32,000 nucleotides of DNA from Ferroglobus placidus DSM 10642 (GTDB taxonomy: Archaea; Halobacteriota; Archaeoglobi; Archaeoglobales; Archaeoglobaceae): NCBI RefSeq assembly GCF_000025505.1, contig NC_013849.1, positions 1,890,001 through 1,922,000 on the forward strand, given 5' to 3'. Shown here in pieces: positions 799-15,734 of this stretch. The notes beneath the pieces are model-generated. The model worked only from the letters and a program-made list of their open reading frames with translations, ran no database searches and was not told where the DNA came from. How positions within the stretch are numbered: the stretch's first letter is position 1; every line of letters begins with the position of its first letter. The position numbers were made by a program, and so were the translations under genes.

Positions 799-1655
799 TT
801 CAGCATCGCCACCATGCTGCCGACGCTAACCCCTATATCCCTCGCTACAGGTTCGCATTTGGCAGTCAAAAGAAAAGCAACGTTTTCCCACTTCGATTCG
901 GACAAGCATTCGTAGTTAGCCATACCCTTAGCCACGATTACGTCAGCCTCCTCTATCCTACTCTTCGTAACCTCCGGAAGCATTTCTTCGTCTATACCAA
1001 TCTCTCCTCCGTTAGGAAGTATTTCGTCGGCAACTTTATCTATTCCGGCAAGCTTCGCATCTTCGATTGTTGCGTCGCTGAGTATTGGCTTTCCTCTAAC
1101 TACAACGCTAACTTTCTCCGAGATCTTCTTGATTTCCCTTATCAGCAAATAATCGAAGAATATCTCTCCGGCGTTGTCAGTTACGTAAACAACCTTCCCT
1201 CTGCAGAGGTCCTTTATCTCCTCGGTGTCGTCGATAGTTAACCCTTTCGCGAACATTTTGAGGAAGTACATCTTGAAGTTATCTTCCTCAACTTTGTGAT
1301 CCAGAACTCCGTAGTCGAAGGCGTTACCGATTATGCTTGCCACGACTGCTCCGTAAAACTTGTCGGAAAGCTTCGAAATGAAATCTTCGACGAATGGCAG
1401 ATTTTTCATAGCAACAGCATTCGCTCTATCCTTAAGAGGTTTGTAAGGGTCTTCGACTCCGAGAACTTCGTAAACTCTTCTGTGGACTTTCGTGGCTATT
1501 AAAGCGTTAATCCCCCTCTTTTCGTATTCCTCGCTTAAAATTTTGAGAGCCTCTCCAACAGCCCTCTCTATTTTGCTCTGATCATTCGTAGCTATCTTGC
1601 ATTCTAGGTAAACCCTGTTCAGCAAACAAGCCGGACATTTAGCAGCGATCCTCAT
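795..1655 (-). CDS. DUF89 / ARMT1-like damage-control phosphatase family protein
   Basis: 286-aa ORF with an N-terminal CxxC (CPACLLNR), NAFDYG, VTDNAGEIFFD and KGMANYE strings typical of DUF89 proteins. It starts 2 nt after the gyrB stop. Confidence 0.8.
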   Translation of the reverse strand: MRIAAKCPACLLNRVYLECKIATNDQSKIERAVGEALKILSEEYEKRGINALIATKVHRRVYEVLGVEDPYKPLKDRANAVAMKNLPFVEDFISKLSDKFYGAVVASIIGNAFDYGVLDHKVEEDNFKMYFLKMFAKGLTIDDTEEIKDLCRGKVVYVTDNAGEIFFDYLLIREIKKISEKVSVVVRGKPILSDATIEDAKLAGIDKVADEILPNGGEIGIDEEMLPEVTKSRIEEADVIVAKGMANYECLSESKWENVAFLLTAKCEPVARDIGVSVGSMVAMLK

Positions 1656-1657
1656 AG

Positions 1658-3523
1658 CTACGTGTCGAGATTTCTCACTTCTGTGGCGTGCTCCATTATG
1701 AACCTCTTCCTGTCTTCGGTGTTCTCTCCCATGAGAATCGAAACTATCTCTTCGGCCATCGCCGCATCTTCGAGTGTTACCTGAATAAGTATCCTTCTCT
1801 TCGGATCCATCGTCGTCTCCCAGAGCTGTTCAGGGTTCATCTCTCCCAGACCTTTGTACCTCTGAACTTCCGCATCTCCTATTCTTTTAAGCAGGTTTTC
1901 GAGTTCTTTGTCTGAGTAAAGGTAGTAAACTTTCTTCCCCTTCTTAACTCTGTAGAGGGGCGGCTGGGCTATGTAAAGGTATCCGTTCTCTATAAGCGGA
2001 CGCATGTAGCGGTAGAAGAAGGTTAGCAGCAGAGTTCTTATGTGAGCTCCATCTATGTCCGCGTCGGTCATTATGATGATTCGCCTGTACCTCGCCTTTT
2101 TTATGTCGAAATCCTTTCCGAAACCGGCACCTATGGCAGCTATAATCGCTTTTATTTCGTCGTTTTTCAAAACTCTAACCATACCAGCCTTCTCTACGTT
2201 TATAATCTTACCTCTTATCGGCAAAATTGCCTGAAATCTTCTGTCTCTTGCCTGTTTTGCCGAACCTCCGGCAGATTCACCCTCAACTATGAACAGCTCC
2301 CTCTCTTCAGGATTTTTCGACGAGCAATCGGCAAGCTTCCCCGGAAGAGTTGCCACTTCTTCTCTCCTCTTTATAACGTCCCTCGCCCTTTTCGCAGCCT
2401 CTCTCGCTTTAGCAGCTAATATGCACTTCTCTATTATTTTGTTAGCCTGCTCAGGATGCTCTTCAAACCACCTCATCAATTCGCTGTAAACTATGGTCTC
2501 CACAGCCGTCTTAACTTCGCTGTTACTCAGCTTGGTCTTCGTCTGCCCCTCAAACTGTGGTTCCGGAACCTTAACTGAAATTACGGCTGTCAAACCTTCT
2601 CTGACGTCCACCCCGGTTATCGGCTTGAAGTTCTTGACGTTCTTCTTTCCGTATTCGTTTATCGCTCTCGTTAGAGCCGCTCTGAATCCTACAACGTGAG
2701 TGCCTCCCTCAACGTTGTGTATGTTGTTGGCATAAGCGAGAATAGTTTCGAAGTCGGTGTTCGTGTACTGCAGAGCTACTTCGACGCTAATTCCGTTTCT
2801 CTCTCCACTTATGTATATTACATCGGAAATCTTTTCTCTGTTGGCGTTGAGATGCTCCACGAACTCCACAATTCCCCTTTCTGAGTAGAACTCCTCCTTT
2901 TTCCCGCTTCTTTCATCGTACAGCTCAAGCTTCAGTCCCTTGTTCAAGTATGCGAGTTCTCTAAGTCTGTGCGCCACTATGTCGTAGCGGAACTCCGTCG
3001 TTTCGAAAATCTCCTCGTCTGGCTTGAACCTCACGTAAGTTCCCGTCTCGTTTGTCTCTCCGATAATCTCAAGAGGTGTCACCGGAACTCCTCTCTCGTA
3101 TCTCTGCCTGTATATCTTTCCGTTTCTCTTAACAATAACTTCCACCCACTCGGAAAGAGCATTAACGACGGATAAACCAACTCCGTGCAAACCTCCAGAG
3201 ACTTTGTACGCTTTTTTGCTGAACTTTCCTCCCGCGTGAAGCTTCGTCATCACTATTTCCAAAGCTGGCTTTCCGAGGGGGTGCATTTCGGTCGGAATTC
3301 CTCTTCCGTCATCTTCGACGCTCGCACTTCCATCCCTATGTAAAACTACTCTTATTCTGCTGCAGTATCCCGCTAAATGCTCGTCAACGCTGTTGTCGAT
3401 AACTTCCCACAAAAGGTGATGAAGCCCTCTAATTCCAACTCCACCAATGTACATCCCCGGTCTCTTTCTCACAGCTTCCAAATCGCTAAGAACTTCGATT
3501 TGCTCAGCCGTGTACTCTTCCAC
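1658..3523 (-). CDS. gyrB: DNA gyrase subunit B
   Basis: 621 aa with a GTG start. GHKL ATPase motifs LEAVRKRPGMYIGG, LWEVIDNSVDE and GGLHGVG. Toprim motifs ELFIVEGESAGGSAKQARDR and IMTDADIDGAHI. C-terminal QRYKGLGEMNP. Confidence 0.95.
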   Translation of the reverse strand: MEEYTAEQIEVLSDLEAVRKRPGMYIGGVGIRGLHHLLWEVIDNSVDEHLAGYCSRIRVVLHRDGSASVEDDGRGIPTEMHPLGKPALEIVMTKLHAGGKFSKKAYKVSGGLHGVGLSVVNALSEWVEVIVKRNGKIYRQRYERGVPVTPLEIIGETNETGTYVRFKPDEEIFETTEFRYDIVAHRLRELAYLNKGLKLELYDERSGKKEEFYSERGIVEFVEHLNANREKISDVIYISGERNGISVEVALQYTNTDFETILAYANNIHNVEGGTHVVGFRAALTRAINEYGKKNVKNFKPITGVDVREGLTAVISVKVPEPQFEGQTKTKLSNSEVKTAVETIVYSELMRWFEEHPEQANKIIEKCILAAKAREAAKRARDVIKRREEVATLPGKLADCSSKNPEERELFIVEGESAGGSAKQARDRRFQAILPIRGKIINVEKAGMVRVLKNDEIKAIIAAIGAGFGKDFDIKKARYRRIIIMTDADIDGAHIRTLLLTFFYRYMRPLIENGYLYIAQPPLYRVKKGKKVYYLYSDKELENLLKRIGDAEVQRYKGLGEMNPEQLWETTMDPKRRILIQVTLEDAAMAEEIVSILMGENTEDRKRFIMEHATEVRNLDT

Positions 3524-3642
3524 GAAACCAAATTTAATCTCTCGGTTTAAAACTCTTGGGTGTTCAATACGAATTCTACTTTAGCCATCGAAATGTTTTT
3601 CTTTTCTCTTTAGAAGGTAATTGGAATCGTGAAAGAGAAAAA

Positions 3643-3652
3643 TTTATAAATA
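3643..3652 (+). promoter_or_regulatory. TATA-box-like element upstream of small-ORF candidate
   Basis: TTTATAAATA preceded by an A-rich BRE-like stretch, about 35-40 nt upstream of the ATG at 3685. A GAGGGTGG Shine-Dalgarno-like string lies between them (3673-3680). Confidence 0.3.
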
Positions 3653-3684
3653 GTAAAATAAAAAAACCATTTGAGGGTGGTAAT

Positions 3685-3780
3685 ATGTTTAAAAGGATTT
3701 TTGAGAAATTAGTGTATTACTTTGTTATGATTTACGTTGTGATTGCGTTTTTAACTGGTAGGATGAAGATGTTTAAGTAG
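3685..3780 (+). CDS. candidate 31-aa hydrophobic peptide (MFKRIFEKLVYYFVMIYVVIAFLTGRMKMFK)
   Basis: ATG preceded by GAGGGTGG at a 4-nt spacing. One predicted TM segment. The stop is followed by the short inverted repeat AGAGCA(3779-3784)/TGCTCT(3798-3803) and then TTT. Below the ORF-track size cutoff as an ATG ORF (it is the 3' part of track ORF 3556-3780). Confidence 0.3.
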   Translation: MFKRIFEKLVYYFVMIYVVIAFLTGRMKMFK

Positions 3781-3931
3781 AGCAGGATATTTAGCTTTGC
3801 TCTTTGGTAATGATGCCCAGAAATTCAGCATTTTTCAAAAGATACTGGCTGAAACTTGTTTTAACACACCGATATTTAAACTACGTTTTGGTCCACAACG
3901 ATATTTACATCTACCAAGTAGAAACACAAAA

Positions 3932-3940
3932 TTTTATATA
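3932..3940 (+). promoter_or_regulatory. TATA-box-like element for the hsdM operon
   Basis: TTTTATATA centred about 30 nt upstream of the GTG at 3966, which would give a leaderless or near-leaderless transcript. It lies in a 440-nt AT-rich intergenic region shared with divergent gyrB. Confidence 0.3.
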
Positions 3941-3965
3941 CCAAATTGGAAGTACTTTTTTATAG

Positions 3966-5720
3966 GTGATACCCGTGTGGGATCAACTTTCTGACGTTGA
4001 AAATTGGGTGAAACAAAGATATATAGTTCTCGCTAAGGAATTCGGAAACAAGCCCTTTAGATTAGAAGACGCTGAAAAGGTTTTGAAAAAAGCGGGAATA
4101 GAAACCGGGAACGTGAAGGAATTACTTTCGATTCTGAGAAAAAAGGGTTTGCTTGAGGTTGAAAAAGACCCTGAAGATTTTAGAAGAAGCATCTACAGGT
4201 TGCTTTTTGTTGAAAAATCCGTGAGTCCTACGAGAGACAAGCTCTTCAGAAGCCTCAAAGCCGGAGCCGATCTGATAAGAGGAGGTGTTGATTACAAAGT
4301 GCTCTTGCTGTTCCTCTTCTACAAGGCTTTGAGCGATAAGTGGAATGCTCTCGTGGAAAGCTTCGTATCAGAAGGACACACAAAAACACAGGCTTATCTG
4401 CTTGCCAACAGAAAATACTATGTGCTTTACGACGAGAATGAGCAGAAGCTCCTGACTTGGCACGAAGTTACGAAGAAGAGAGAGACGCTCACAGAACTTG
4501 CGAACGCCTTAACGAGAATATCGAGATTGAATGAAAAGCTTTCAGACCTTGAGAAGCTCGTCGAGATTCTAGGATTCAAGGGATTCATAAGCGAAGATAA
4601 TCTTCACACTATCGAGAGCATAATCCAGATTTTCAACACCCTCGATTTCTCGAAGCTGCCCTATGACGTTATAGGAGATGCATATATGTGGATTCTGAAT
4701 TACTTCGCTCCACAGAAGGCGAAGGAAGGAGAAAACTACACTCCGATAGAAATAGTGAAGCTCGTTGTCAACTTGTTGGACATAGAGGTCGATGAAGAGA
4801 GTGGGGTTGTTACCGTTCTCGATCCAGCTTTAGGCTCCGGAAGTATGCTCATAGTTTCGAGAGATTACGTTAGAGAGAAGTACGGGAAGGAAGGGGAAGA
4901 TGTTCTCATGCTTTACGGTCAGGAAAGAAACGAGATAATGGGTGTTATAGCAAAAATGAACCTGATTCTTCACGACATAAAGAATTACGAGATTTTTATT
5001 GGAGACAGTTTAGCCAATCCGAGATTTCCGCAGTGCGATTACGTCGTCGCTAATCCGCCCTGGAACCAGGATTACAACGTGAACGGGCTTATAGAAGATC
5101 CAAAGGTTAAGAAAATTTACACGCAGTTCACGAGCACTTTGCCACCCAAAAACTCGATGGACTGGGGCTGGATACAGCTCATGCTTTACTTTGCAAGGAA
5201 AAAAGTTGGTATAATTCTCGACAACGGAGCTTTGTTCAGAGGAGGGAGTGAAAAGAGGATTAGAGAGGCTATTGTTAGGAGAGATTTGATCGAAGCCGTT
5301 GTTCTGCTTCCGGAGAAGCTCTTCTACAACACGGGAGCACCGGGATGCGTTATTATTTTCAACAAGAACAAGCCTGAAGAGAGGAAAGGTAAAATCCTGT
5401 TCATCAACGCAAGCAACGAGTACGAGAAGCATCCAGAAGTTAGAAGGTTGAACAGACTCGGAGAGAAAAATATCGAGAAGATCGTGGATGCTTACCGAGA
5501 ATTTAAGGATATCAAGGGTTTTGCGAGAGTTGTCAGCATTGAAGAGATTGCGAAGAACGATTACAATCTAAACGTTACGCTCTACGTAACTCCAATCGTA
5601 GAAGAAGAGGAGATCGACGTTGTCGAAGAGTGGCGAGAACTCGAGAAGATAGAAGCTGAGAGAGATGAGATAAAAGCCAAGCTCAGCGAATACGTTTCCG
5701 AAATAATGAGGGTTTGGTGA
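3966..5720 (+). CDS. hsdM: type I restriction-modification system, N6-adenine DNA methyltransferase subunit M, with N-terminal wHTH-like extension
   Basis: 584 aa. SAM-binding motif [13 protein letters not shown] and catalytic motif [11 protein letters not shown]. HsdM N-domain-like [24 protein letters not shown]. The GTG start at 3966 is uncertain (alternative GTG at 3975). Confidence 0.9.
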
Positions 5721-5905
5721 TGAGTATGGGAAAGGTTGTGGAAGCTATTTACGAGAAGGGGGTGCTGAAACCTCTCGAAAAGTTAGACTTAAAGGAGGGT
5801 GAGAGGGTCAAGATAGAAATCAGAAGGAGCGTTTTCGGAATCTTGAAGGACTGGAAAGTAGACTCTCAGAAGCTTAAGGATAAGTTTAGACAAACTGGAG
5901 GATGA
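5720..5905 (+). CDS. DUF104 (AF2212-like) putative antitoxin family protein
   Basis: [34 protein letters not shown] is the hallmark N-terminus of the archaeal DUF104 family. The ATG at 5720 overlaps the hsdM TGA by 1 nt (TGATG); alternative starts are 5714, 5717 and 5726. Its last codons GGAGGATGA supply the SD for the next gene. Confidence 0.7.
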
Positions 5906-5909
5906 TATC

Positions 5910-8258
5910 ATGATGTTGAACATATTTGAGGTAGATAAAAATCGAGTAGAGGTGCCACAGGACGTATACCTCTACAAGGTTCATCTAAAAACGCTGGAGC
6001 AGAGAAAAAGAGACATGTGTATAGCTGTCTTAAGAAATAGTTTTGGGTATCTTGACGTAAACAGTTTTGTTATATACTCGTACAAAGAGATTAGGGATCT
6101 GCCACGAAGAATTAAAAAATACTGCGACTTAGAACCTACAGGAAAGGTAAAAATGAATGAAGTTGACGAAAACGTTAGGAATGCATTGGTTAAAACTTTT
6201 CTTAGATCGAAGATAAGAAAGGATATTAAAAAACTCTTAAAAAAATTTAAAAAATTTCAACAAAGTGTTGGGCGATGGACAGTCGCATTGGACTTAGAGA
6301 GAATAGAGTTAGTGGAGCATAATGGAGAAATCCTCGTTTCTTTTAATGTCAAATTAAATATTAGTTCAATGATAAATTTATGGGATATAATTGAAAGAGA
6401 TGTTAACAGGCTAAAAGGACTCTGCTGGAGTCCAGAAAACCTAAACGACAATAGAATTTGGTTTAGGTACATTCCTCATTTGATTATAGAAGAAGTTGAG
6501 GATTTCGAGGAGAGTGCAAAATCTTTCATTCTTAGCGATGTTCATACTGGAGAAGAGTTTGGAGGTTGGACTACTGAAGATCTAAAGAAATATCCAGAAA
6601 ATGAGTATGGCTTATCAGAGGATGCCATTAAGAAAATTGGGAATTATACGCAATTCGATAGCACCCAACCGATTATTAAAGGTGTAACTTGGAGTGGTAA
6701 GGAGTATCCCTTTTTACCTCAGCATTGCATCCCAGCTTACAATCCAATGTTAGCAACAGCTGAGGAGAAAAAAAGAATAGAAGAAATTAAAATCAATTTA
6801 AAAAATAAAAAAGATGAAATTATTAGAAAAATAATTGAACAGCTACCGTACCTAAAACAACCTGATAACATTGAGATTAAAAAAGTGCAAGAGACAGCCA
6901 GATTAAGAGCAAAATTTGTTAAAGTTGAGGTAACTAAAGGTAAAATTACTAAAACTCTTTCTCAGCCGTACGAAAAACCAGTGTCGAGTACTTTGGATTT
7001 GTTTGGCTGGATTTCAAGAATTATAGATGGAGGAGATGGAATTATAGAGATTTGCATTCCAGATTACATACCAGAAAATCTTTCAAGAATTAAAGAGATC
7101 GAAGCATTCTTGCTAATTGAAAATGATTTGAACGAAAATGAAAGAAAAGTAGGCGACAAATTATTAAATGACGCAATATATGTTTATAACTTCGTTAGAA
7201 GCGTTTGCCTCAGGTGTGGTATAAATATACCTTACTTAAATTATAAAGGTAACCGATTCTACTTTGAAAATAGCAAAGAGGGTATCAGAGATATATACAA
7301 AAGGATAACCACCTCCCTTAGCGGTGAGATAGGTTTTGCTCTTATATTTGGAAAGAGAGATAATTATGAAGACGAAGAGGGCGAAGATTCTTTTGACTAC
7401 TACAATCCCCTAAAATCTGCTTTATTTAGAAACAACATATTAAGTCAAAATTTTGATGTCACGAATTATGTAAGAGGCGACGGCAAAATTAATAAGAACA
7501 CGATTAAATATGCTGTATCAAATATAATTTATAATATTTTTGGGAAGTTGGGAGTAAAATTCTTCGTTCTTGAAGAGGATGTTCCATACGACTACATACT
7601 TGGTATTGATGTAGGGTATGGCGAAGCTTACACAGGTAAAGTAGCTGGATGCACAACAGTGCACGACTCGGAGGGCAGACTAAGAAACTTAATTCCTATA
7701 GAAAAACAGAACTATCCCTCCAAGGAGACTGCAAGAATTAAAGCCTTACTAGAAGAAATTGAACAGAAAAAGAAAATTTACAACATAGATTTTGAGAACA
7801 AAAGTATACTAATCTTGAGAGACGGTCGCATTAATAAAGAAGAAATAAACCAACTGATGGAGTTTTCTGAAGAAAGAAATTGCAGGATAACGTATATCGA
7901 AATCAGGAAAAACATTGTGCATCAATTCTTAGTGAATAGCTCACAAGCGTGTTATGTCAAGATTGGCGATTATTACATCTTGAAAGCTCATAATCCTAGA
8001 ATAGGATTTCCCAGAGCAATAAAGATTGCAAGAAAGATCGTAATTGAGGGCGATGCGTGGAGAGAGTCATCACTAACGGAGGACGACATCTTACTGATTT
8101 ACAAACTTACAGCCCTGAATTATTCTACAATCGGCAGAGATAGCAATCTTAGAATACCGGCTCCAATTTACTACGCTGATAAACTTGTAAAAGCCCTTAA
8201 AAAAGGGTGGAAATTCGATGAGAGGTTCTTGAGGTATGGAATTCTATACTTCTTGTAG
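5910..8258 (+). CDS. long prokaryotic Argonaute (PIWI-domain protein), D-E-D-D catalytic residues apparently intact
   Basis: 782 aa. MID pocket Y498-x3-K502...Q513...K546 (DYYNPLK, LSQNF, FGKLGVKFFVL). PIWI motifs YILGIDVGY (D567), PSKET (E606), ILILRDGR (D638) and RIPAPIYYADKLV (D757, aligned with H807 of the human AGO2 string PAPAYYAH). PAZ/L2-like string YPFLPQHCIPAY. A GGAGGA SD lies 7 nt upstream of the ATG. Confidence 0.85.
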   Translation: MMLNIFEVDKNRVEVPQDVYLYKVHLKTLEQRKRDMCIAVLRNSFGYLDVNSFVIYSYKEIRDLPRRIKKYCDLEPTGKVKMNEVDENVRNALVKTFLRSKIRKDIKKLLKKFKKFQQSVGRWTVALDLERIELVEHNGEILVSFNVKLNISSMINLWDIIERDVNRLKGLCWSPENLNDNRIWFRYIPHLIIEEVEDFEESAKSFILSDVHTGEEFGGWTTEDLKKYPENEYGLSEDAIKKIGNYTQFDSTQPIIKGVTWSGKEYPFLPQHCIPAYNPMLATAEEKKRIEEIKINLKNKKDEIIRKIIEQLPYLKQPDNIEIKKVQETARLRAKFVKVEVTKGKITKTLSQPYEKPVSSTLDLFGWISRIIDGGDGIIEICIPDYIPENLSRIKEIEAFLLIENDLNENERKVGDKLLNDAIYVYNFVRSVCLRCGINIPYLNYKGNRFYFENSKEGIRDIYKRITTSLSGEIGFALIFGKRDNYEDEEGEDSFDYYNPLKSALFRNNILSQNFDVTNYVRGDGKINKNTIKYAVSNIIYNIFGKLGVKFFVLEEDVPYDYILGIDVGYGEAYTGKVAGCTTVHDSEGRLRNLIPIEKQNYPSKETARIKALLEEIEQKKKIYNIDFENKSILILRDGRINKEEINQLMEFSEERNCRITYIEIRKNIVHQFLVNSSQACYVKIGDYYILKAHNPRIGFPRAIKIARKIVIEGDAWRESSLTEDDILLIYKLTALNYSTIGRDSNLRIPAPIYYADKLVKALKKGWKFDERFLRYGILYFL

Positions 8259-8267
8259 TTGAGGCTC

Positions 8268-8585
8268 ATGAAGGTCGAAAAGATCGTTGAGGAATTCGCT
8301 CGGGAACTGAGGAAGAAACACGAAGACAAAGTAGAGGCTATAATCTTCTTCGGTTCTCATGCGAGGAGTGAAGGAAGGGAGGAGAGCGACATCGACGTTT
8401 TAATCATTGGAGACTTAAAGCTCGACGAAGCTGTAGATGTCGCTTATCCGATTTTTCTGAAGTACGGAGTTTACATTTCCCCGATCGTGATGAATAGAGA
8501 GCACTTCGAGACGTTAAAAGCTGAAAGGACCGGATTCATCGAGAACGTTTTGAAGGAAGGGGTATTTTTGTATGGCGGAGTATGA
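8268..8585 (+). CDS. minimal nucleotidyltransferase (MNT), antitoxin-type partner of HEPN
   Basis: FFGSHARSEGREESDIDVLII is the GSxxR...DxD Pol-beta-type NTase signature. The protein is small (105 aa from the ATG at 8268; alternative TTG at 8259, immediately after the Ago stop). The 3' end overlaps the HEPN gene by 14 nt. Confidence 0.85.
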   Translation: MKVEKIVEEFARELRKKHEDKVEAIIFFGSHARSEGREESDIDVLIIGDLKLDEAVDVAYPIFLKYGVYISPIVMNREHFETLKAERTGFIENVLKEGVFLYGGV

Positions 8586-8973
8586 GAAATACCTCGAAAG
8601 GGCTTACGAAGCCCTCGAATCCGCTAAGATTTTGTTTGAGAACGAGAAGTACAACGCTTCGATAAGTCAAGCTTATTACGCAATGTTTTACGCATCGAAA
8701 GCCCTTCTGAGCCTTAAGAGAATATATCCAAGAACTCACAGGGGAGTAGTTTCCGAATTGGGTTTGAGATTTGTGAATGAGGGCTATATCGAAGAGCTTT
8801 ACGGCAAAATCTTGGCTAAGGGCTTGCAGTTGAGGGAGAGGGTGGATTACGACGTTTATTACAGAGCATCAAAGGAGGAGGCTGAGGAGATGATAAACGA
8901 GGCTGAGATGTTCGTAGAGAGGATAAGGAGGGCGATAGAGGAGATTTTGAAGAGAGGTGAGGGGAATGATTGA
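8572..8973 (+). CDS. HEPN domain protein (PF05168-type), toxin-type partner of MNT
   Basis: 133 aa. Helix pair AYEALESAKILFENEKYNASISQAYYAMFYASKALL, then RIYPRTHRGV and LRERVDYDVYY. Classic MNT-then-HEPN gene order with overlapping reading frames. Confidence 0.85.
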   Translation: MAEYEKYLERAYEALESAKILFENEKYNASISQAYYAMFYASKALLSLKRIYPRTHRGVVSELGLRFVNEGYIEELYGKILAKGLQLRERVDYDVYYRASKEEAEEMINEAEMFVERIRRAIEEILKRGEGND

Positions 8974-9298
8974 CGTGATGTTTGTTCCGATCTTTCTTTT
9001 TCAGTTCGTCTTTTGGTTGTTTCTGAACCTAACGAGAATCGGACAAGCAATCTTAGCAATTTGGGGTAGTTTGACTTTGATGGGGTTCATTGTAAACGTA
9101 TTTTATCCCGCATATCTTCAAACGATTCATCTTGGAACGTCTGGGAATTTCTTGATGGCGACCGATTTAATTGTTGAATTCGTGAAAGATTCGGTTTTGT
9201 TTTTGGTTAATTTAGTCATTCCACCTTGGTTGGGGTTGCTCGTTGGATTATTTTCGACTCATGCACAGAGAGGTGAGAAATATGATCTCGTCTGCTAA
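8966..9298 (+). CDS. small integral membrane protein (about 3 TM segments), unknown function
   Basis: It fills the otherwise 300-nt gap between HEPN and hsdS. The ATG at 8966 overlaps the HEPN stop (ATGATTGA) and is preceded by GAGGTGAGGGG. Hydrophobic stretches: VMFVPIFLFQFVFWLFLNL, GQAILAIWGSLTLMGFIVNVF and VLFLVNLVIPPWLGLLVGLF. The 3' end overlaps the hsdS start by 17 nt. Confidence 0.55.
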   Translation: MIDVMFVPIFLFQFVFWLFLNLTRIGQAILAIWGSLTLMGFIVNVFYPAYLQTIHLGTSGNFLMATDLIVEFVKDSVLFLVNLVIPPWLGLLVGLFSTHAQRGEKYDLVC

Positions 9299-10547
9299 GC
9301 TTCAATTCTACAAGGAGGAGAGGCTTGTATTTAACAAAGAACTCGGTTGCGAGATTCCTGAGGATTGGGGAGTTGTTAAGCTTGGAAAGGTTGTTGAAGT
9401 CTGGGATAAGTATAGAATTCCAGTTAAAGAGCAAGATAGAAAGCCAGGACCATATCCTTACTGCGGAGCTAATGGTATAATTGATTACGTTGATGGTTAT
9501 ACACATGACGGAGAATTTGTTCTCCTTGCCGAGGATGGAGGTTATTTTGGACCTTTTGAAAAGAGTGCATACATAATGCGAGGAAAATTCTGGGCAAATA
9601 ACCACGTGCACATTTTGAAAGCTATAGCAAATAAAATGACGAGCGAATTCTTGATGTTTTACTTAAACTTCATGGATTTAAGGCCTTTCTTGACTGGCTC
9701 CACTCGACCCAAATTGACACAAACTGATATGTTGAGAATTCCTTTACCAAAACCTTCACTTCCAGAACAAAAAGCAATCGCAGAAATCCTCTCAACAGTC
9801 GATAGAGCCATCGAAAAAACCGATGAAATCATCGCCAAAGTTGAACGCTTAAAGAAGGGCTTGATGCAGGAGCTTCTCGCTGGCAGGGTTAGAGTTAAAG
9901 TTGAGAACGGGAAGATCAGATTTTACAGAGAGACGAGATTTAAGGATAGCGAGATCGGGAAAGTGCCAGAGGATTGGGAGGTTGTTAAGCTTGGGAAAGT
10001 TGCCGAGCAAAGGAAAGAAATTGTTGACCCTACCGAAGTTGATCCCGTAACCCCATATGTTGGCCTAGAACACGTAAACTCGGGAGAAACGAAATTAAGT
10101 AACTTCGGAAAAGCAGAGGAAGTCGTTAGTTCAAAATATAGGTTTTACATTAGAGATATCCTTTACGGAAAATTAAGACCATATCTCGACAAAGCTGTAA
10201 TTTCTAATATTAACGGAGTCTGTTCTACTGATTTTATCGTCATGAGAACTAAAAGAGACTACACAATACCTGATTTCTTGATTTATGTGCTACATACAAA
10301 GAGATTCATCGATTATTCTACTGCTGGTATGACTGGAACAAATCATCCTCGAACATCTTGGAATTGGATAGCTAAGTTTGAATTTCCGCTCCCACCACTC
10401 CAAGAACAAAAAGCAATAGCAGAAATCCTTTCAACTCTCGACAAAAAACTCGAACTTGAAAAGAAAGAGAAGGAAAGACTTGAGAGAATAAAGAAGGGGC
10501 TAATGAATGTTTTGCTGACTGGAAGAGTGAGGGTGAAAGTTGGATGA
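9282..10547 (+). CDS. hsdS: type I restriction-modification system, specificity subunit S (two target-recognition domains)
   Basis: Duplicated architecture: IPEDWGVVKLGKVVEV / VPEDWEVVKLGKVAEQ at the start of each half. Duplicated conserved helices LPEQKAIAEILSTVDRAIEK...LKKGLMQELLAGRVRVKV / LQEQKAIAEILSTLDKKLEL...IKKGLMNVLLTGRVRVKV. The ATG at 9282 is preceded by GAGGTGA (the track ORF starts at a TTG at 9243). Confidence 0.9.
   Translation: MISSAKLQFYKEERLVFNKELGCEIPEDWGVVKLGKVVEVWDKYRIPVKEQDRKPGPYPYCGANGIIDYVDGYTHDGEFVLLAEDGGYFGPFEKSAYIMRGKFWANNHVHILKAIANKMTSEFLMFYLNFMDLRPFLTGSTRPKLTQTDMLRIPLPKPSLPEQKAIAEILSTVDRAIEKTDEIIAKVERLKKGLMQELLAGRVRVKVENGKIRFYRETRFKDSEIGKVPEDWEVVKLGKVAEQRKEIVDPTEVDPVTPYVGLEHVNSGETKLSNFGKAEEVVSSKYRFYIRDILYGKLRPYLDKAVISNINGVCSTDFIVMRTKRDYTIPDFLIYVLHTKRFIDYSTAGMTGTNHPRTSWNWIAKFEFPLPPLQEQKAIAEILSTLDKKLELEKKEKERLERIKKGLMNVLLTGRVRVKVG
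9762..9796 (+). repeat. hsdS internal direct repeat, copy 1 (central conserved region)
   Basis: ccagaacaaaaagcaatcgcagaaatcctctcaac matches 10401-10435 at 32 of 35 positions by hand alignment. Confidence 0.85.
10401..10435 (+). repeat. hsdS internal direct repeat, copy 2 (distal conserved region)
   Basis: caagaacaaaaagcaatagcagaaatcctttcaac; see copy 1. A second repeat pair lies at 9357-9393 and 9966-10002 (32 of 37 identical). Confidence 0.85.
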
Positions 10548-11467
10548 ATTTAGACAACATAGAACAAATTTTAGAATCTCCTGAAAAGTTAGACTCTTTA
10601 TTAAAATTACTTATGTCTTTGGAGCGAATTTTAGAATCTCAAGATGAACAGAGATATTTAGAAGCTAAAAGGTTTGTTGAGTCGGCAAATGAAGATTTAA
10701 AGGCTTCACAAATCCTTTACAATGCAGGTTTATACTCATCAGCGGTCTTTCACATGCAACAAGCTACTGAAAAATACTTTAAAGCAATAGCAATTTACTA
10801 TTTTGGACTTTCAAAGAAAAACATTAGGAAATACGTGAAACACGATACACCTAAGATTGCAATTTTATTTTTAAGAAAGTATCAAAATATAGTTAAAGAT
10901 TTAACTATGTTTTTCAAAGATATTGTCCCCGAGAAATACTTAGCAGATACTTCGAGAGAATACATCCTCAATCTTGAAAGATTGATAAATACAAATAAAC
11001 GAGACATTGCCCAATTGAATAAAGAAGAAATATATAAGCTAATTAAGTTAACTAGATCGCTTGTCGAAAGCTTAGAGAGTGATGACACTAAGAATAAAAT
11101 TCTTAATACTCTTCAGGATTTAAATAACAATAAAAGTAAGATAGTTAATAAAATTCTAGAGGTATTAAACCTCTCCCAAATTAGTGAATCTAAGCTTGAC
11201 CAAATTAAGAAACAAATCATAAAGGCACTCGATGTTTCCTTTACTGAAGCTCCTCACAATGTAGAAATTGCTCTAAAACTTGCATCTTCGATATGTATGT
11301 TATTCTTTCTGGGAATAATAACGTACCCGCATGCTACTTTTACGCGATACAGACAAAAATCAGCCCCTCAATATGATATAGGGCTTGGAATAGTGGATTC
11401 TTTCAGAGACTTACTTGAATTGCTACAGTTGGCATCTGATAATATAAATAACCTGTTTAATATATAA
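10544..11467 (+). CDS. HEPN-like domain protein with a large helical insertion, embedded between hsdS and hsdR
   Basis: 307 aa. ANEDLKASQILYNAGLYSSAVFHMQQATEKYFKAI is a textbook HEPN alpha1-alpha2 hairpin, followed by RKYVKHD (R95-x4-H100, nt 10826-10843). The C-terminal YPHATFTRYRQ...YD resembles the closing ..RY.. helix. About 140 K/N/L/I-rich residues lie in between. The ATG overlaps the hsdS TGA (ATGA). Confidence 0.6.
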   Translation: MNLDNIEQILESPEKLDSLLKLLMSLERILESQDEQRYLEAKRFVESANEDLKASQILYNAGLYSSAVFHMQQATEKYFKAIAIYYFGLSKKNIRKYVKHDTPKIAILFLRKYQNIVKDLTMFFKDIVPEKYLADTSREYILNLERLINTNKRDIAQLNKEEIYKLIKLTRSLVESLESDDTKNKILNTLQDLNNNKSKIVNKILEVLNLSQISESKLDQIKKQIIKALDVSFTEAPHNVEIALKLASSICMLFFLGIITYPHATFTRYRQKSAPQYDIGLGIVDSFRDLLELLQLASDNINNLFNI

Positions 11468-11487
11468 GATCGTAGAGGTGTAGCATT

Positions 11488-14400
11488 ATGCCCCTCCAAT
11501 CGGAGGATGTCGTTCACGAAGAAATCAAGAGAAATCTCATCGAAATCGGCTGGAAAGATGGAAATACCGAGCTGAAAATACCTGAACACGCGCTGATCGA
11601 AAGTTATTACCTGCCAGACGTTCTTGAAAAGAAAATCCTCGAAATTAACGAGGAGGAGTTTTCGAGGGTTGAAGAAGACGAGGAAAGAGAGGTGTTTGCA
11701 AAAATCTTTGAAGAGCTGAACGCGAGGGAAGAAAGAATTCTCGACTATCTTAAATACGGGGTCAAAGTTAAAGTTGGAAAAGAAATCAAAATTTTTCGCC
11801 TGATAGATCACGAGAAGCCTAAGAGGAATTACTTTTTCTTCCTTCACGAAGCCAAGTTTAAAGGCTCTCCAGACAACAGCAAGCCAGATTTCACGCTCTT
11901 CATAAACGGAATACCCGTGGTTATAATCGAGGCTAAGTCGGAGTCAATTCCTTACTCACACAAAACAGCTTTGGAAGACATAAGAAGCTACGAAATGCGA
12001 TCTCCCGATCTCTTCCGATTCGTTCAGTTTGCAATCGCTTACGGAGATGAGAAACGCTACACTCCAACGCTCCCAAACTGGGAGAGAAAACAAACTCAAA
12101 GCTTCTCGTTTAACTGGAAAGACGATATTTTCGATCTCCTGAATCCGGAAAGGCTCGTGGAATTCATTCGATACTTCGTTTTCTTCTGGAGTCCCGAAGA
12201 AGGTGTCAAAAAGAAGCTCGTTGCGAGATACAATCAGTACAGAGCGACGAAAAAAGCTATGAGAAGAATCGAAGAGCACATGAACGATGAAAAGAACCGC
12301 GGACTGATATGGCACTGGCAGGGGAGTGGCAAAACCTTCACGATGTTCTTCATAGCCAACTACTTTCTCGACAAATACTATTCGCAAAATCCCGTTGTGT
12401 TCTTTGTAGTTGACAGGCAAGACTTAGAGAGGCAGCACGACGAAGTTCTAAAGTCCGTTCACGAAGAAAAATTCAGGAGTCTTTACAAGAAAATTGAAAG
12501 CATCCCCGAGCTTTGCAAAATAATCGAAACTCTGAAGGAGAGCGAGTTCTCGAAAAACATAATTCCTCGCGGTGTATACTTAACCACGATTCAGAAATTC
12601 CAGAGAGGTCAAACGGACGTCGAAGGCTTGAGCGAGAAAGAAGATCGGGAAGCTTCGCAGAGAATATACTCGCTATTGCTCAAGCTCGCAGAAAGGTATC
12701 TGAAGCACCTTGAAAAAACTAATCCGGAGGAATACAGAAAAGTTATGAACAAACTCTCTTCTCTTAAAGGAAAGGATAGGGTGAAATACCTCCTCGAACT
12801 TGGTGGCGTAAAAAGTAAATCTGTGCTCTTCCTGATAGACGAAGCTCACAGAAGTCATTACAGCACTCTCGGAGCGATGAGGAAAGCAAGCTTTCCGAAC
12901 TGCGTGACTTTAGGCTTTACAGGAACGCCTATTTTCAAATACGAGAGAAACACCTTCGTCGAGTTTTCTTATCCAGACGAGAAGGAGTATTACCTTGACG
13001 TTTACTTCATCGAAGAGTCAATAAAGGACGGATTCACTCTTCCGCTCGCCTACGAGGTTGTTAAAGAAGGTGACGTGAAAGCTGAAGGAATTCAGATAAG
13101 GTTAACCGAGAAGGAGATAGCGGACTTCATAAAAGAATACATGAAAAAGCGCGGAAAGATAGAGGAGCTCCTTGAGGCGAAAATAACCAAGAAGGAAATT
13201 CGCGATAACATAACGAAGGCTAAGGTCATCTTGCTCAATCCTGAAAGGATAGACAAACTCGCCAAGTACATCGTTGATAGAATCGAAGAAGACACGGAGA
13301 ATTTCAAGTTCAAAGCGATGGTCGTAGCCGTTAACAGGCTCGGATGCGTGAGATACAAGAGAGCTCTGGACAAATATCTCGTGGAAAAATTTGGAGAGGA
13401 GGCAAGAAGCTGGAGCGAAATAGTGATGACCTACAACTACAAAGAGACTGAAAGGGAAATCCTCGAATACATGGAAGAGCTCAGAGAAAGAAGAGGAAAC
13501 AAGGACTACAACGAAATAAACAAAGAAATACAGGACGAGTTCAAAAACAAAGAAGATCCGAGAATTTTAATAGTTACGGACATGCTACTAACAGGTTTCG
13601 ATGCTCCCAGACTTAGAGTCATGTATCTGGACAAACCGCTTTACGAACACAGACTTCTACAGGCTATAGCCAGGGTTAACAGACCTTACGAGGACAAGGA
13701 ATACGGGTTGATCGTTGATTCTGTAGGACTCATGGAACACCTCACCAAAACCATGGCAATTTACAACCTCCTAGCTGATGAAAATAGCGAGATCAAGCGA
13801 GATCTTGAGCTTAATCTAATGAAGTCGATAGAGCAGAAGTTCTCCGAATTCGAATTGAAGTTTAACAGTTTGAAAGAAGAGCTGAAAACGCTTAAAGTGG
13901 CTGGCGAAGATGTCGGAATTGACATCGATGCCGTAAAGAAAGCTTTGAAAACCGGTGAAGGCAAGGAAGAAGTACTGAGCAAGATAAAAATGTTTGCGAT
14001 GCTTTATACGGAAAGCGAAGAGTTCTCAACCAAGCTCGTTAGGATTGTAAACGAAATGAGAGGAATTTTGAGGTTATACAAAGCTCTGGGAGCTTACACT
14101 CAAAAAATAGTTTACGTTGAAGATGTTCAAGCTCTTGCGTACATCTACTACAGACTCAGATCTATAATATCCCCGAAGACCGCAAGACTCGGAAAAGAAT
14201 TCTGGGATGAGCTGAGATCGTACATTTACGAAAGAACTGTGGTTGAGGAGTTTAGGGAAGTAGGAAGGACAAAACTCGAACCAGAAAAAATAGATAAACT
14301 GGTTTCGGAGTTTGCCGAAAAATTTGGTGAAGACGAGCTAAGGAGGAAAATCGTCAATCAGCTTGCCGATTATTTCTTCTACATCAGAAACTTTGTAAAA

Positions 14401-14526
14401 GACAAAGTTCACGATCCCGTCTACAGACAAATAGCTGAAAAAATCGAAAGGTTGAGGATAGAATGGATATTAAGAGCTGTTAATACAAAGACGTTTCTCG
14501 CTAAACTCAAGGCAATCGAAGACTAA
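11488..14526 (+). CDS. hsdR: type I restriction enzyme, R subunit (nuclease + SF2 helicase), ends at an in-frame TAA
   Basis: 1012 aa. PD-(D/E)xK-like KPDFTLFINGIPVVIIEAKSE. Helicase motif I WHWQGSGKTF, motif II FLIDEAHRSHY, motif III GFTGTPI and motif VI QAIARVNRPY. A GAGGTG SD lies in the 20-nt gap after the preceding gene. Confidence 0.9.
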   Translation: MPLQSEDVVHEEIKRNLIEIGWKDGNTELKIPEHALIESYYLPDVLEKKILEINEEEFSRVEEDEEREVFAKIFEELNAREERILDYLKYGVKVKVGKEIKIFRLIDHEKPKRNYFFFLHEAKFKGSPDNSKPDFTLFINGIPVVIIEAKSESIPYSHKTALEDIRSYEMRSPDLFRFVQFAIAYGDEKRYTPTLPNWERKQTQSFSFNWKDDIFDLLNPERLVEFIRYFVFFWSPEEGVKKKLVARYNQYRATKKAMRRIEEHMNDEKNRGLIWHWQGSGKTFTMFFIANYFLDKYYSQNPVVFFVVDRQDLERQHDEVLKSVHEEKFRSLYKKIESIPELCKIIETLKESEFSKNIIPRGVYLTTIQKFQRGQTDVEGLSEKEDREASQRIYSLLLKLAERYLKHLEKTNPEEYRKVMNKLSSLKGKDRVKYLLELGGVKSKSVLFLIDEAHRSHYSTLGAMRKASFPNCVTLGFTGTPIFKYERNTFVEFSYPDEKEYYLDVYFIEESIKDGFTLPLAYEVVKEGDVKAEGIQIRLTEKEIADFIKEYMKKRGKIEELLEAKITKKEIRDNITKAKVILLNPERIDKLAKYIVDRIEEDTENFKFKAMVVAVNRLGCVRYKRALDKYLVEKFGEEARSWSEIVMTYNYKETEREILEYMEELRERRGNKDYNEINKEIQDEFKNKEDPRILIVTDMLLTGFDAPRLRVMYLDKPLYEHRLLQAIARVNRPYEDKEYGLIVDSVGLMEHLTKTMAIYNLLADENSEIKRDLELNLMKSIEQKFSEFELKFNSLKEELKTLKVAGEDVGIDIDAVKKALKTGEGKEEVLSKIKMFAMLYTESEEFSTKLVRIVNEMRGILRLYKALGAYTQKIVYVEDVQALAYIYYRLRSIISPKTARLGKEFWDELRSYIYERTVVEEFREVGRTKLEPEKIDKLVSEFAEKFGEDELRRKIVNQLADYFFYIRNFVKDKVHDPVYRQIAEKIERLRIEWILRAVNTKTFLAKLKAIED

Positions 14527-14586
14527 ATAGAGGAGTATAAAAATAAGACCGAAGGAAAACCGCTCGAAGAAAGGCTAAAAGAGAGT

Positions 14587-14832
14587 ATGAGTTACTACGT
14601 GAAACAAAAAGCTGGTAAGGAAGCTGACTTTTCGAATACAAAGAAATATCTCAAAAACCTCGTTTCGAGGAAAACGAAAATACTTCCGAAACAGGAGAGC
14701 GAACTCAAAACCAGAATTCTGGAAGATTTGTTCCTGGCGGGGGTGGAGGAAAAGGAAGCTGTAAAGCTAACAGACGAACTCGCGGAGTACATCAAAGAGG
14801 AGATGGATAGATTATGGAGCGAAAGGAGGTAA
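14587..14832 (+). CDS. 81-aa ORF in the same frame as hsdR; probable detached C-terminal tail of HsdR
   Basis: Frame 1, the same as hsdR. Only the TAA at 14524-14526 separates them, and codons 14527-14586 contain no further stop. The string QESELKTRILEDLFLAGVEEKEAVKLTDELAEYI resembles the extreme C-terminus of full-length HsdR proteins as I recall it. Confidence 0.4.
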   Translation: MSYYVKQKAGKEADFSNTKKYLKNLVSRKTKILPKQESELKTRILEDLFLAGVEEKEAVKLTDELAEYIKEEMDRLWSERR

Positions 14833-15107
14833 TAAAGCTCTTCAAAGAGATAGTTAAAGAACTAGGCTTGGAAGGAATTAGAATCAGGATCGTTCCTATG
14901 AAAAGGAAGATCGCGTCTTTCTCTTTCAAAACAAAAACCCTTAGAGTGAACCGAAGAGTTACCGAGCTTTTAGATTATGAACTCGTAAGATATATAATTC
15001 TTCATGAGCTCGTACATTTTAAAATAAACGATGCGAATCACGGAAAAAGATTTTTGAAGAATTTGGGAAATATTACACCGAAAAAGATGCGAAAAAAATC
15101 GAAATAA
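14814..15107 (+). CDS. minimal HExxH metallopeptidase-like protein (DUF45/YgjP-like core)
   Basis: 97 aa. TLRVNRRVTELLDYELVRYIILHELVHFKINDANHGKRFLKNL matches the ..l.fn.rL......i.yVv.HEL.H....nHs..Fw core of DUF45 proteins. These proteins are recurrently encoded next to type I hsdR genes. Confidence 0.6.
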   Translation: MERKEVIKLFKEIVKELGLEGIRIRIVPMKRKIASFSFKTKTLRVNRRVTELLDYELVRYIILHELVHFKINDANHGKRFLKNLGNITPKKMRKKSK

Positions 15108-15327
15108 AACTAATTCAGAAATTGATTTCTGCCCAGATTCTTGAAATTATTTCGGTTCCTCAATCCCCTGACGAAGGTGATTGTAATACAACCTGAACAA
15201 CTTACAAAACAAATTCCAGTTTCTAACGGGATTTTTAGCTGTTATCGAACAGAAAAACAGTTTAATTCTCTGCCTGAAAGAAGAAAACACAGATTCAATT
15301 AATCGTCCTCGTTAACTAACCAAAAAG

Positions 15328-15337
15328 TTTTTATAAG
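15328..15337 (+). promoter_or_regulatory. TATA-box-like element upstream of the ylbF-like gene
   Basis: TTTTTATAAG preceded by AAAAAG, about 45 nt upstream of the ATG at 15378. An AAGGTGGGG SD lies at 15364-15372. Confidence 0.35.
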
Positions 15338-15377
15338 CTTGAAACGACGCTTTGGAATCTGCAAAGGTGGGGTGTAT

Positions 15378-15734
15378 ATGGTGTCTGAAGAGATTAGGAC
15401 GAAAGCTTTGGAGCTTGCAAGGGCTATAGTTGGAAGTGAGGAGTACCAGAATTTTATCGAGAAGGAGGAAGTTTTGAAGAACGATGAAGAAGCTCAGAAC
15501 TTGCTTGTAGAGTTTCAGGATCTTCAGCAGCAGTTCATCTCTTACCAGCTCTCTGGAGAGATGAACGAGGACGTGTTGAACAGGCTAACAGAGATTCAGA
15601 AGGCTTTAAATGAGAGGGAAAGCGTAAAGAACTTCATGGAAGCTTACAACAGGTTGCTCGATCTTCTCCAGGAGGTTAGCGACATCCTAAGCGAAGAAAT
15701 GGAGTTCGATCTGGGAGAAGTGTATAGAAGGTAG
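15378..15734 (+). CDS. YlbF/YmcA-like (UPF0342) family protein
   Basis: The pattern KALELARAIVGSEEYQNFIEKEEVLKNDEEAQNLLVEFQ...VKNFMEAYNRLLDLLQEVSDIL fits the YlbF family. The ATG at 15378 has an SD; the track ORF starts at an upstream TTG (15339) that would overlap the promoter. Confidence 0.6.
   Translation: MVSEEIRTKALELARAIVGSEEYQNFIEKEEVLKNDEEAQNLLVEFQDLQQQFISYQLSGEMNEDVLNRLTEIQKALNERESVKNFMEAYNRLLDLLQEVSDILSEEMEFDLGEVYRR

Follow-up and report, generated by a model that had tools for sequence, protein, structure and literature searches.

A conserved Argonaute clade nested in a family of Type I restriction-modification operons with cargo slots

How catalytically active long prokaryotic Argonautes (pAgos) tell foreign DNA from their own and where their guides come from are questions that still await an answer, especially in the archaea. 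A locus of the hyperthermophilic archaeon Ferroglobus placidus DSM 10642 poses them in a particular form. Within the 32,000-nucleotide (nt) stretch of its chromosome analysed here (the window; NC_013849.1, positions 1,890,001 to 1,922,000), a Type I restriction-modification (R-M) operon at 3966-15107 on the + strand carries the gene of a long Argonaute (Ago), FpAgo, between the genes of its methyltransferase and specificity subunits. What is an Argonaute doing there? An initial annotation, made from the sequence alone, knew of no other catalytic-looking long pAgo in this position. The nesting is in fact the rule for the clade to which FpAgo belongs: in seven of eight lineages the Ago gene lies beside hsd genes, with hsdM or hsdS on each side for which there is sequence, both of its sides being visible in four. 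The Ago and the frame genes of the F. placidus operon are these:

3966-5720, + strand: hsdM, Type I methyltransferase subunit (Pfam N6_Mtase, 9e-99; TIGR00497, 4e-55)
5910-8258, + strand: FpAgo, long-A pAgo of 782 amino acids (aa) (Piwi, 1.3e-20; PADLOC pAgo, 2e-144)
9282-10547, + strand: hsdS, specificity subunit with two target recognition domains (TRDs) and two conserved repeats (Methylase_S, 8e-51, in two stretches)
11488-14526, + strand: hsdR, restriction/translocase subunit (TIGR00348, 8e-165; HSDR_N, SWI2_SNF2, T1R_D3)
14814-15107, + strand: ygjP, short YgjP-like (DUF45/SprT-like) HExxH metallopeptidase-domain protein (Pfam YgjP-like, 2e-11)

FpAgo has few close relatives. A word-indexed search of 5.8 billion proteins yielded five Ago clusters, and an exhaustive phmmer search of 1.84 billion representatives yielded 70 Ago matches, with two other 50% clusters at least 45% identical. 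A profile search with an alignment of the five Agos added no further relatives, a scan of metagenome contigs added two loci only, and a scan of viral contigs found no Ago loci. The clade sample consists of eight lineages, several of them on short contigs, all ascertained through Ago. We propose to define the clade by an Ago at least ~42% identical to FpAgo that is encoded between hsdM and hsdS of the Type I family whose HsdM has a winged-helix (wHTH) extension. F. placidus and six further lineages conform to that definition; L011 is the exception (L001-L029 are the labels of our comparison loci). The gene orders outside F. placidus are as follows, with Ago identity to FpAgo in brackets; MAG is metagenome-assembled genome, MNT minimal nucleotidyltransferase and ORF open reading frame:

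L002/L003 (68%): hsdM, AF2212-like, MNT, Ago, 66-aa product, PIN, hsdS, hsdR, YgjP
L004-6 (48%): hsdM, Ago, hsdS, M48 peptidase, fragmented hsdR, YgjP
L007-10 (49%): hsdM, Ago, hsdS, 88-aa product, 220-aa product, hsdR, 94-aa ORF weakly similar to YgjP
L012 (47%): hsdM, 15-nt gap, Ago, AF2212-like, then the contig end
L013 (42%; bacterial Aquificota-type MAG with sigma-54, LpxA and GlmU): hsdM, HepT, MNT, Ago, then the contig end
L014 and L016 (one MAG): hsdM, Ago on one contig; Ago, hsdS on the other
L011 (51%; Archaeoglobaceae MAG), 867-5184: a 642-aa fusion of a phospholipase D-type (PLD) nuclease with a HerA-like ATPase overlaps the start of Ago; no hsdM

In L004-6, L007-10 and L014 with L016, no gene separates the Ago (the relatives have 42-74% identity) from hsdM on one side or hsdS on the other, and the junctions measure -4 to +15 nt. 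A neighbour-joining tree without bootstrap shows the clade as monophyletic, with L011 nested inside it. The Agos and the R-M frames that hold them are not related to one another in the same way. Ago identity is 68% between F. placidus and L002 and 74% between L004 and L007; HsdM identity is 86% between F. placidus and L004 and about 50% for all other pairs. Because these histories disagree, it appears that Ago cassettes have moved between R-M frames and have always landed in the same place, the interval between hsdM and hsdS that is called slot 1 here. The clade Agos also have a GC content of 0.30-0.35 (window and L002-L013) whatever the GC content of the adjacent hsdM (0.32-0.435). Among the R-M frames with a different Ago, that of L004-6 is nearest to the F. 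placidus frame. A link between the type of Ago and the first TRD of HsdS was considered and rejected: the TRDs differ in every operon.

The frame is itself a well-populated family. Its architecture is hsdM, slot 1, hsdS, slot 2, hsdR, ygjP, and it is common in (hyper)thermophilic archaea. HsdM has at least 3540 relatives at E < 1e-50; the closest, at 85-88% identity, belong to operons that have no Ago, and the slots of Ago-less members are variously filled:

L019/L020 and L022/L023: hsdM, 162-aa HEPN protein, hsdS, second N6_Mtase (~500 aa), hsdR, YgjP
L021: 122-aa multi-transmembrane protein in slot 1, second N6_Mtase in slot 2
Methanocaldococcus (HsdM 61% identical): bare hsdM, hsdS, hsdR, YgjP, with both slots empty
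Archaeoglobaceae MAG: slot 2 taken up by unrelated genes (4.3 kb)

In frames nearly identical to that of F. placidus, slot 2 holds a second methyltransferase or an M48 peptidase instead of the HEPN-domain protein (HEPN2) that occupies it in the window. The ygjP gene is the last of the family, following hsdR in L002, L004, L020-22, L025 and L026; its counterpart in L007, the 94-aa ORF, is a weak homologue (34% identical). The second N6_Mtase (L020 4840-6351; L021 13372-14895; L022 7384-8886) is an hsdM paralogue that lacks the N-terminal winged-helix-like extension of ~90 aa, so that L020, L021 and L022 have two methyltransferase genes in one Type I operon. The extension itself (3966-4260 in the window, with weak matches to Mnd1 HTH and HTH_27) is common to the Ago-bearing and the Ago-less operons of the family. 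A further instance of defence cargo in slot 2 is L015 (11175-21133), which reads hsdM, hsdS, GmrSD (DUF262), AAA_15 ATPase, hsdR and a full-length YgjP (229 aa).

How the F. placidus slots were filled can be read, in part, from comparison with the Ago-less relatives. blastn homology comes in two blocks, ~3886-5700 (the promoter region and hsdM) and 11485-15107 (hsdR, its tail and ygjP); the first ends where hsdM ends and the second sets in exactly at the start of hsdR. Between the blocks it matches only the two conserved regions of hsdS (9757-9997 and 10386-10541), and there is no homology to the related operons in 5729-9756 or 10544-11484. The initial annotation had described a single Argonaute/HEPN cassette interrupting the R-M operon and had proposed comparison with syntenic operons; relatives without Ago do exist (HsdM 85-90% identical), but the inserts are not one unit. 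Two slots are occupied, by these genes:

5720-5905, + strand: AF2212-like (DUF104) small protein of antitoxin type (Pfam PF01954, 1.6e-19)
8268-8585, + strand: MNT, of MntA-like antitoxin type (NTP_transf_2, 2e-10; PADLOC PDC-S09, 7e-21)
8572-8973, + strand: HEPN protein of 133 aa (Pfam HEPN, 1.1e-19)
8966-9298, + strand: small membrane protein of 113 aa with three transmembrane segments (3-TM; three hydrophobic segments by hydropathy)
10544-11467, + strand: HEPN2, HEPN-domain protein of 307 aa (Pfam HEPN, 3.4e-10, residues 42-176), the slot-2 cargo

Slot 1 appears to be a mosaic of a resident 3-TM gene and imported AF2212-like, FpAgo and MNT-HEPN genes with different histories. The 3-TM protein has no Pfam or PADLOC match, but it is 48% identical (E 2e-29) to the one protein encoded in slot 1 of L024, an operon without Ago, and for that reason we assign it to the R-M frame. 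The AF2212-like protein has a homologue (64% identical) at the same position in L002, and the MNT has one (64% identical) upstream of the L002 Ago; AF2212-like, Ago and MNT genes thus seem to travel together, as in L002. HEPN2 was probably imported too, into the second, independent slot. A 20-nt direct repeat on either side of the 3-TM gene (D8) could have been the trace of an insertion, but this was rejected: the repeat consists of a shared Shine-Dalgarno (SD) motif (GAGGTGA) and start codon, and 12 kb of sequence should hold an exact 11-mer match by chance.

By gene order, overlap and domains, MNT and the 133-aa HEPN protein form a type VII toxin-antitoxin-like pair, to judge from their sequences. 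The MNT scores 29.8 bits against the NCBIfam MntA cut-off of 60, and it shows GSHARSEGREESDIDV, to be compared with the GSx(n)DxD motif of such nucleotidyltransferases. The sole R-x(4-6)-H string of the 133-aa HEPN protein is at residues 50-56, off the position expected in helix 4. The AF2212-like gene has no PIN partner in the F. placidus locus with which to make a VapBC-like pair; in L002 a PIN gene is present, beyond the Ago. HEPN2 has an R-x4-H string at residues 95-100 and one C-terminal hydrophobic segment (240-262); a search of PDB sequences gave no matches, and a single-sequence AlphaFold model had a pLDDT (the model's own confidence measure) of 48, too low for a fold search. Pfam, NCBIfam and PADLOC searches find no ATPase domain in either HEPN protein, which sets both apart from PrrC and RloC; the one feature they have in common with these is the embedded position. 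An MNT gene, with or without HEPN/HepT, adjoins Ago in three lineages (L013 6580-7321; L002 9662-9970; window 8268-8973). Its position relative to Ago differs in each of them, and the L013 pair shows no sequence relationship to the MNTs of F. placidus and L002.

The eleven co-directional + strand ORFs and the junctions between them had been listed correctly, to the nucleotide, and the domain calls were likewise borne out by Pfam, PADLOC and NCBIfam searches; an independent Logan assembly (L001) contains all eleven proteins unchanged. Overlaps join hsdM to the AF2212-like gene (1 nt, TGATG), MNT to HEPN (14 nt), HEPN to the 3-TM gene (8 nt), the 3-TM gene to hsdS (17 nt), hsdS to HEPN2 (ATGA) and the ORF that follows hsdR (the tail ORF) to the HExxH ORF (19 nt). 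The AF2212-like gene is separated from Ago by 4 nt, Ago from MNT by 0 nt if MNT starts at TTG 8259 or by 9 nt if it starts at ATG 8268, and HEPN2 from hsdR by 20 nt with AGAGGTG inside; hsdR ends at a TAA that is followed by 60 stop-free nt up to the ATG of the tail ORF at 14587. An SD-like motif (resembling GAGGTG) precedes every gene except the tail ORF. The candidate for a single operon promoter is this:

3933-3940, + strand: TATA box of archaeal consensus, TTTATATA, ~25 nt upstream of hsdM

A strict scan of 3400-15500 finds three TATA sites only, at 3643, 3933 and 11119. The last is within HEPN2, 369 nt before hsdR, and 3933 is the only consensus site that adjoins a gene start. No run of six or more T occurs on the sense strand in the 11.1 kb; this is weak evidence against internal termination, since only 2.2 +/- 1.4 runs are expected and the deficit is not significant. 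The tight, operon-like layout that had been recognized thus holds up, and the overlapping and near-abutting junctions, together with the SD motifs, fit a polycistronic mRNA. GC content is not uniform along the operon, being 0.346 in Ago, 0.308 (the lowest) in HEPN2 and 0.344 in the short YgjP-like ORF; the other genes have 0.40-0.45, with about 0.43 for the hsd genes.

FpAgo is itself a known protein. The window sequence is 100% identical to the NCBI F. placidus Piwi protein (WP_012966655), which has been classed as long-A, with PAZ at 153-282, MID at 387-551 and PIWI at 552-767 (PMC6299218). In vitro the protein cleaves DNA at 75-99 deg C with guides that are strictly 5'-phosphate DNA and preferably 15-20 nt long, and it also nicks plasmids without guides (PMC8248672). 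That the Argonaute is catalytic, as its sequence had suggested, is established by mutation of its DEDD tetrad (D567/E606/D638/D757): activity is lost altogether in D567A and D638A and severely impaired in E606A and D757A (PMC8248672). The tetrad is invariant in our alignment A1, and MjAgo and PfAgo are the closest solved structures. The paper that describes this biochemistry does not contain the word "operon", and its uses of "restriction" and "neighbor" are unrelated to gene context (PMC8248672). "PprPIWI", a PADLOC model name, could not be matched to a description in the literature searched.

The R-M genes bear the marks of a Type I system, and one of them is damaged. HsdM (which matches the N-6 DNA methylase of F. 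placidus at 100% identity) has the SAM-binding DPALGSGS and the NPPW motifs of the gamma-class N6-adenine methyltransferases; its true start is likely to be GTG 3975, which follows AGGTGAT. HsdS has internal direct repeats (D1 and D2) and the two TRDs of a Type I specificity subunit, with conserved regions 75-84% identical to relatives and TRDs that are unique. The three hsd genes had been taken to be complete. For hsdM and hsdS this is so; in hsdR, codon 1013 (14524-14526) has changed from GAA to TAA, a nonsense mutation that ends the gene early. When the in-frame translation of 11488-14832 is aligned with the HsdR proteins of L020, L021, L022 and L004 (1101-1115 aa; 71-76% nucleotide identity), the TAA stands opposite Glu in all four orthologues (AIED*IEEYKN against AIESELEEYRE and similar). 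What follows is the severed end of the gene:

14527-14832, + strand: severed hsdR C-terminus of ~101 codons (20 stop-free codons and the 81-aa tail ORF), colinear with the C-termini of the orthologues

This segment is ~68% identical to L004, where it is fused in frame to hsdR, and its ATG at 14587 is the sole start in the cluster without an SD motif. The colinear alignment, the in-frame fusion in L004 and the SD-less start identify the tail ORF as the lost HsdR C-terminus. The lost 101 residues match no Pfam domain, and the 1012-aa product that remains has its nuclease (PD..EAK) and helicase (GSGKT, DEAH) motifs intact. In L004-6 hsdR is split into three ORFs (L004 7047-10388; L005 6976-10164; L006 6894-10235), with hsdM, Ago and hsdS intact, and the L005 gene has a deletion of ~45 aa besides. 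The hsdR genes of L002 and L007 are intact.

The neighbours of Agos just outside the clade have a bearing on the matter. In Thermogladius calderae (TCELL_0628; L027 6629-13341, CP003531) an Ago ~34% identical to FpAgo is preceded by an N6_N4 DNA methyltransferase and followed by a 943-aa DEAD/ResIII helicase; the helicase is Lhr-like and the arrangement Type III-like. The P0203 Ago (~34%) is followed by a 730-aa ResIII helicase, the arrangement seen in L028/L029. A distantly related split Ago in L015 (33%) is convergent to another Type I operon, the one with GmrSD and the AAA_15 ATPase, and the L018 Ago (31%) has no helicase or R-M neighbour.

Taken together, these observations make it probable, though far from assured, that the F. 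placidus locus is a co-transcribed layered defence and that the FpAgo clade depends on a motor/nuclease partner, with its coupling to the R-M system (R-M ends feeding Ago guides, as the initial annotation had it) an inference from comparative data. The dependence is argued from the long residence of the clade in R-M operons, from the helicase partners of the outgroup Agos and from the PLD-HerA partner in L011. Ago stays in the hsdM-hsdS slot down to ~45% identity, across frames only ~50% identical to one another, in archaea and in a bacterial MAG. In such a defence the M2S complex would methylate self DNA, and HsdR, if the truncated protein still assembles, would translocate along and cut unmethylated invader DNA. 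FpAgo would load 5'-phosphorylated small DNAs from the degraded invader and cut complementary DNA, and the HEPN modules might serve as toxin or abortive back-ups. The clade would then be a specialised slot-1 cargo that relies on an ATP-driven motor/nuclease partner (here HsdR and the R-M complex) to reach DNA or to obtain guides, and the R-M module, being addictive, would also provide co-expression and stabilisation. Bacterial pAgos are known to take guides from ends processed by RecBCD, a helicase-nuclease (PMC10250240).

Several facts pull the other way. The sample is small, eight lineages, some of them on short contigs, and was ascertained via Ago; the promoter and terminator evidence for a single transcript is at the level of motifs. 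Two Ago-bearing lineages have a damaged hsdR, truncated in F. placidus and broken in three in L004-6, next to an intact hsdM, Ago and hsdS, and this argues against a strict dependence on HsdR. The R-M proteins keep 85-90% identity whether or not the operon has an Ago; being nearly the same in both cases, they give no sign of co-adaptation, and a specific protein-protein adaptation of FpAgo to the R-M system does not look to be the case. FpAgo is autonomous in vitro. A narrower proposal, that the R-M complex licenses the Argonaute, is one that we hold to be unlikely; in it, invader-derived 5'-phosphate guides would come from unmethylated DNA along which HsdR translocates and which it cleaves, or would depend on M2S recognizing unmethylated sites. 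Were it true, methylation status would be the self/non-self filter of Argonaute immunity in organisms without RecBCD, and the operon would be a hard-wired relay from innate to guided defence, analogous to restriction-stimulated CRISPR adaptation.

The rapid turnover of slot contents in frames that are 85-90% identical suggests a simpler account, in which slot 1, with conserved hsdM and hsdS sequence on its flanks, is permissive for recombination and Ago, once captured, spreads only by homologous recombination among related R-M operons, is kept by the addictive R-M system and acts alone. Unrelated cargo uses the same slots (HEPN, membrane protein, second methyltransferase, M48 peptidase, DUF3800, M78/DUF4411), the R-M proteins have no Ago-specific changes, the Agos keep their low GC (0.30-0.35) in any host frame, and the autonomy of FpAgo in vitro suits such a passenger well. 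Pure hitch-hiking is a serious rival to motor/nuclease dependence. What makes us rate it as improbable on balance is the persistence of the residence to ~45% Ago identity, across ~50% HsdM frames and in both archaea and a bacterial MAG, and the pairing of clade and outgroup Agos with an ATPase or helicase, with or without a nuclease, even outside Type I operons, which hitch-hiking does not predict.

The state of hsdR lends itself to yet another interpretation: the restriction arm is decaying, the operon is now a methyltransferase and an Ago only (r- m+), and Ago has replaced restriction as the DNA cutter. The HsdR C-terminal domain of EcoR124I is needed for assembly of the complex, and in F. 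placidus the nonsense codon falls at a conserved Glu, leaving a tail whose ATG has no SD motif; in L004-6 fragmentation of hsdR has occurred independently, next to an intact hsdM-Ago-hsdS. Against this stand the intact nuclease and helicase motifs of the 1012-aa protein, the absence of any known domain from the 101 lost residues, the intact hsdR of L002 and L007 and the intact downstream ygjP, and we regard loss of the restriction arm as possible but doubtful. A guardian arrangement, with Ago and/or HEPN held latent by the R-M system and released when a virus inhibits restriction, has its precedent in PrrC inside EcoprrI (PMC12707154; PMC3710099); slot 1 or slot 2 repeatedly holds a HEPN protein in this family, and HEPN2 has an R-x4-H string. 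Neither HEPN2 nor the 133-aa HEPN protein, however, has the ABC-ATPase domain that defines PrrC and RloC; the 133-aa protein has an MNT partner of its own, as is usual in type VII toxin-antitoxin systems; given guides, FpAgo is constitutively active in vitro; and nothing points to contact with HsdM or HsdS. We therefore think latency of this kind very improbable. Dependence on a motor/nuclease partner remains the reading that we prefer.

What is new here is a conserved R-M-nested Argonaute clade in a cargo-slot Type I family; R-M-embedded defence genes and pAgos with motor or nuclease partners are known kinds. R-M operons are well known to harbour HEPN, abortive infection (Abi) and other defence genes, so that the precedent for HEPN genes that had been claimed for this operon is real (PMC3710099). 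A statistical link of pAgo genes to R-M, Abi and toxin-antitoxin genes was shown in 2009 (PMC2743648), and the pAgo-operon orthogroups of Ryazansky et al. (2018) include HsdS (og_11), a SAM methyltransferase (og_13) and type III restriction helicases (og_21/34) (PMC6299218). R-M components and helicases were thus already seen to be enriched next to pAgos; that survey consists of lists only, without the nested architecture, the clade conservation, the slots or the incongruent histories. In a 2026 preprint a SLFN-pAgo and an R-M system share one Poribacteria operon. A literature search, made largely outside the subscription journals, turned up nothing that describes the hsdM-Ago-hsdS architecture, its conservation in a clade or the slot structure; absence there is not proof.

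The closest parallel is the E. coli prr locus, in which PrrC lies in the EcoprrI Type IC hsd genes: there, too, a second-line effector is nested among hsdM, hsdS and hsdR, and in it and other HEPN-in-R-M loci the accessory depends on the R-M locus while most R-M loci have no accessory. The F. placidus effector differs in being a guide-directed long-A Argonaute nuclease of a hyperthermophilic archaeon rather than an ABC-ATPase-HEPN RNase, and the latency and anti-restriction trigger known for PrrC have no known equivalent at this locus. With PfAgo, MjAgo and CbAgo/TtAgo, FpAgo shares the N-PAZ-MID-PIWI architecture, the DEDD tetrad and 5'-phosphate-DNA-guided DNA cleavage. CbAgo/TtAgo have DNA ends processed by RecBCD/AddAB as their guide source; unlike stand-alone long-A pAgos, the FpAgo clade is built into a Type I operon, and its presumed partner is HsdR, not a host repair enzyme. 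Variable defence cargo in a conserved operon, placed between hsdS and hsdR or between hsdM and hsdS, is also seen in the Vibrio VPI-2 Type I system with its embedded Type IV system (PMC11411939) and in L015 with GmrSD and AAA_15; the FpAgo clade differs in being nearly confined to one slot of one R-M family. The nested clade and its helicase- and PLD-HerA-paired relatives are a natural experiment that points to an obligatory motor/nuclease partner, and one that is directly testable, FpAgo having already been purified and characterised. The Type I operons of thermophiles, with their defined slots of fast turnover, can also be mined for new defence genes.

Some features of the surroundings deserve mention. 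The marks of a genomic island were sought without finding tRNA genes, Rfam families or flanking att-like repeats. The spacer between gyrB and hsdM contains a TATA-like site at 3643 (TTTATAAA) and an ORF for a hydrophobic product of 31 aa (3685-3780), with GAGGGTGG as its SD motif; the ORF matches no family and is a called gene in the Logan assembly. Elsewhere in the family, stand-alone EVE-domain genes flank several operons (L002 19858-20301; L019 9428-9871; L020 738-1181; L022 12775-12996) and integrase genes lie upstream in L019, L021 and L022, neighbours which suggest that these operons ride on integrated elements.

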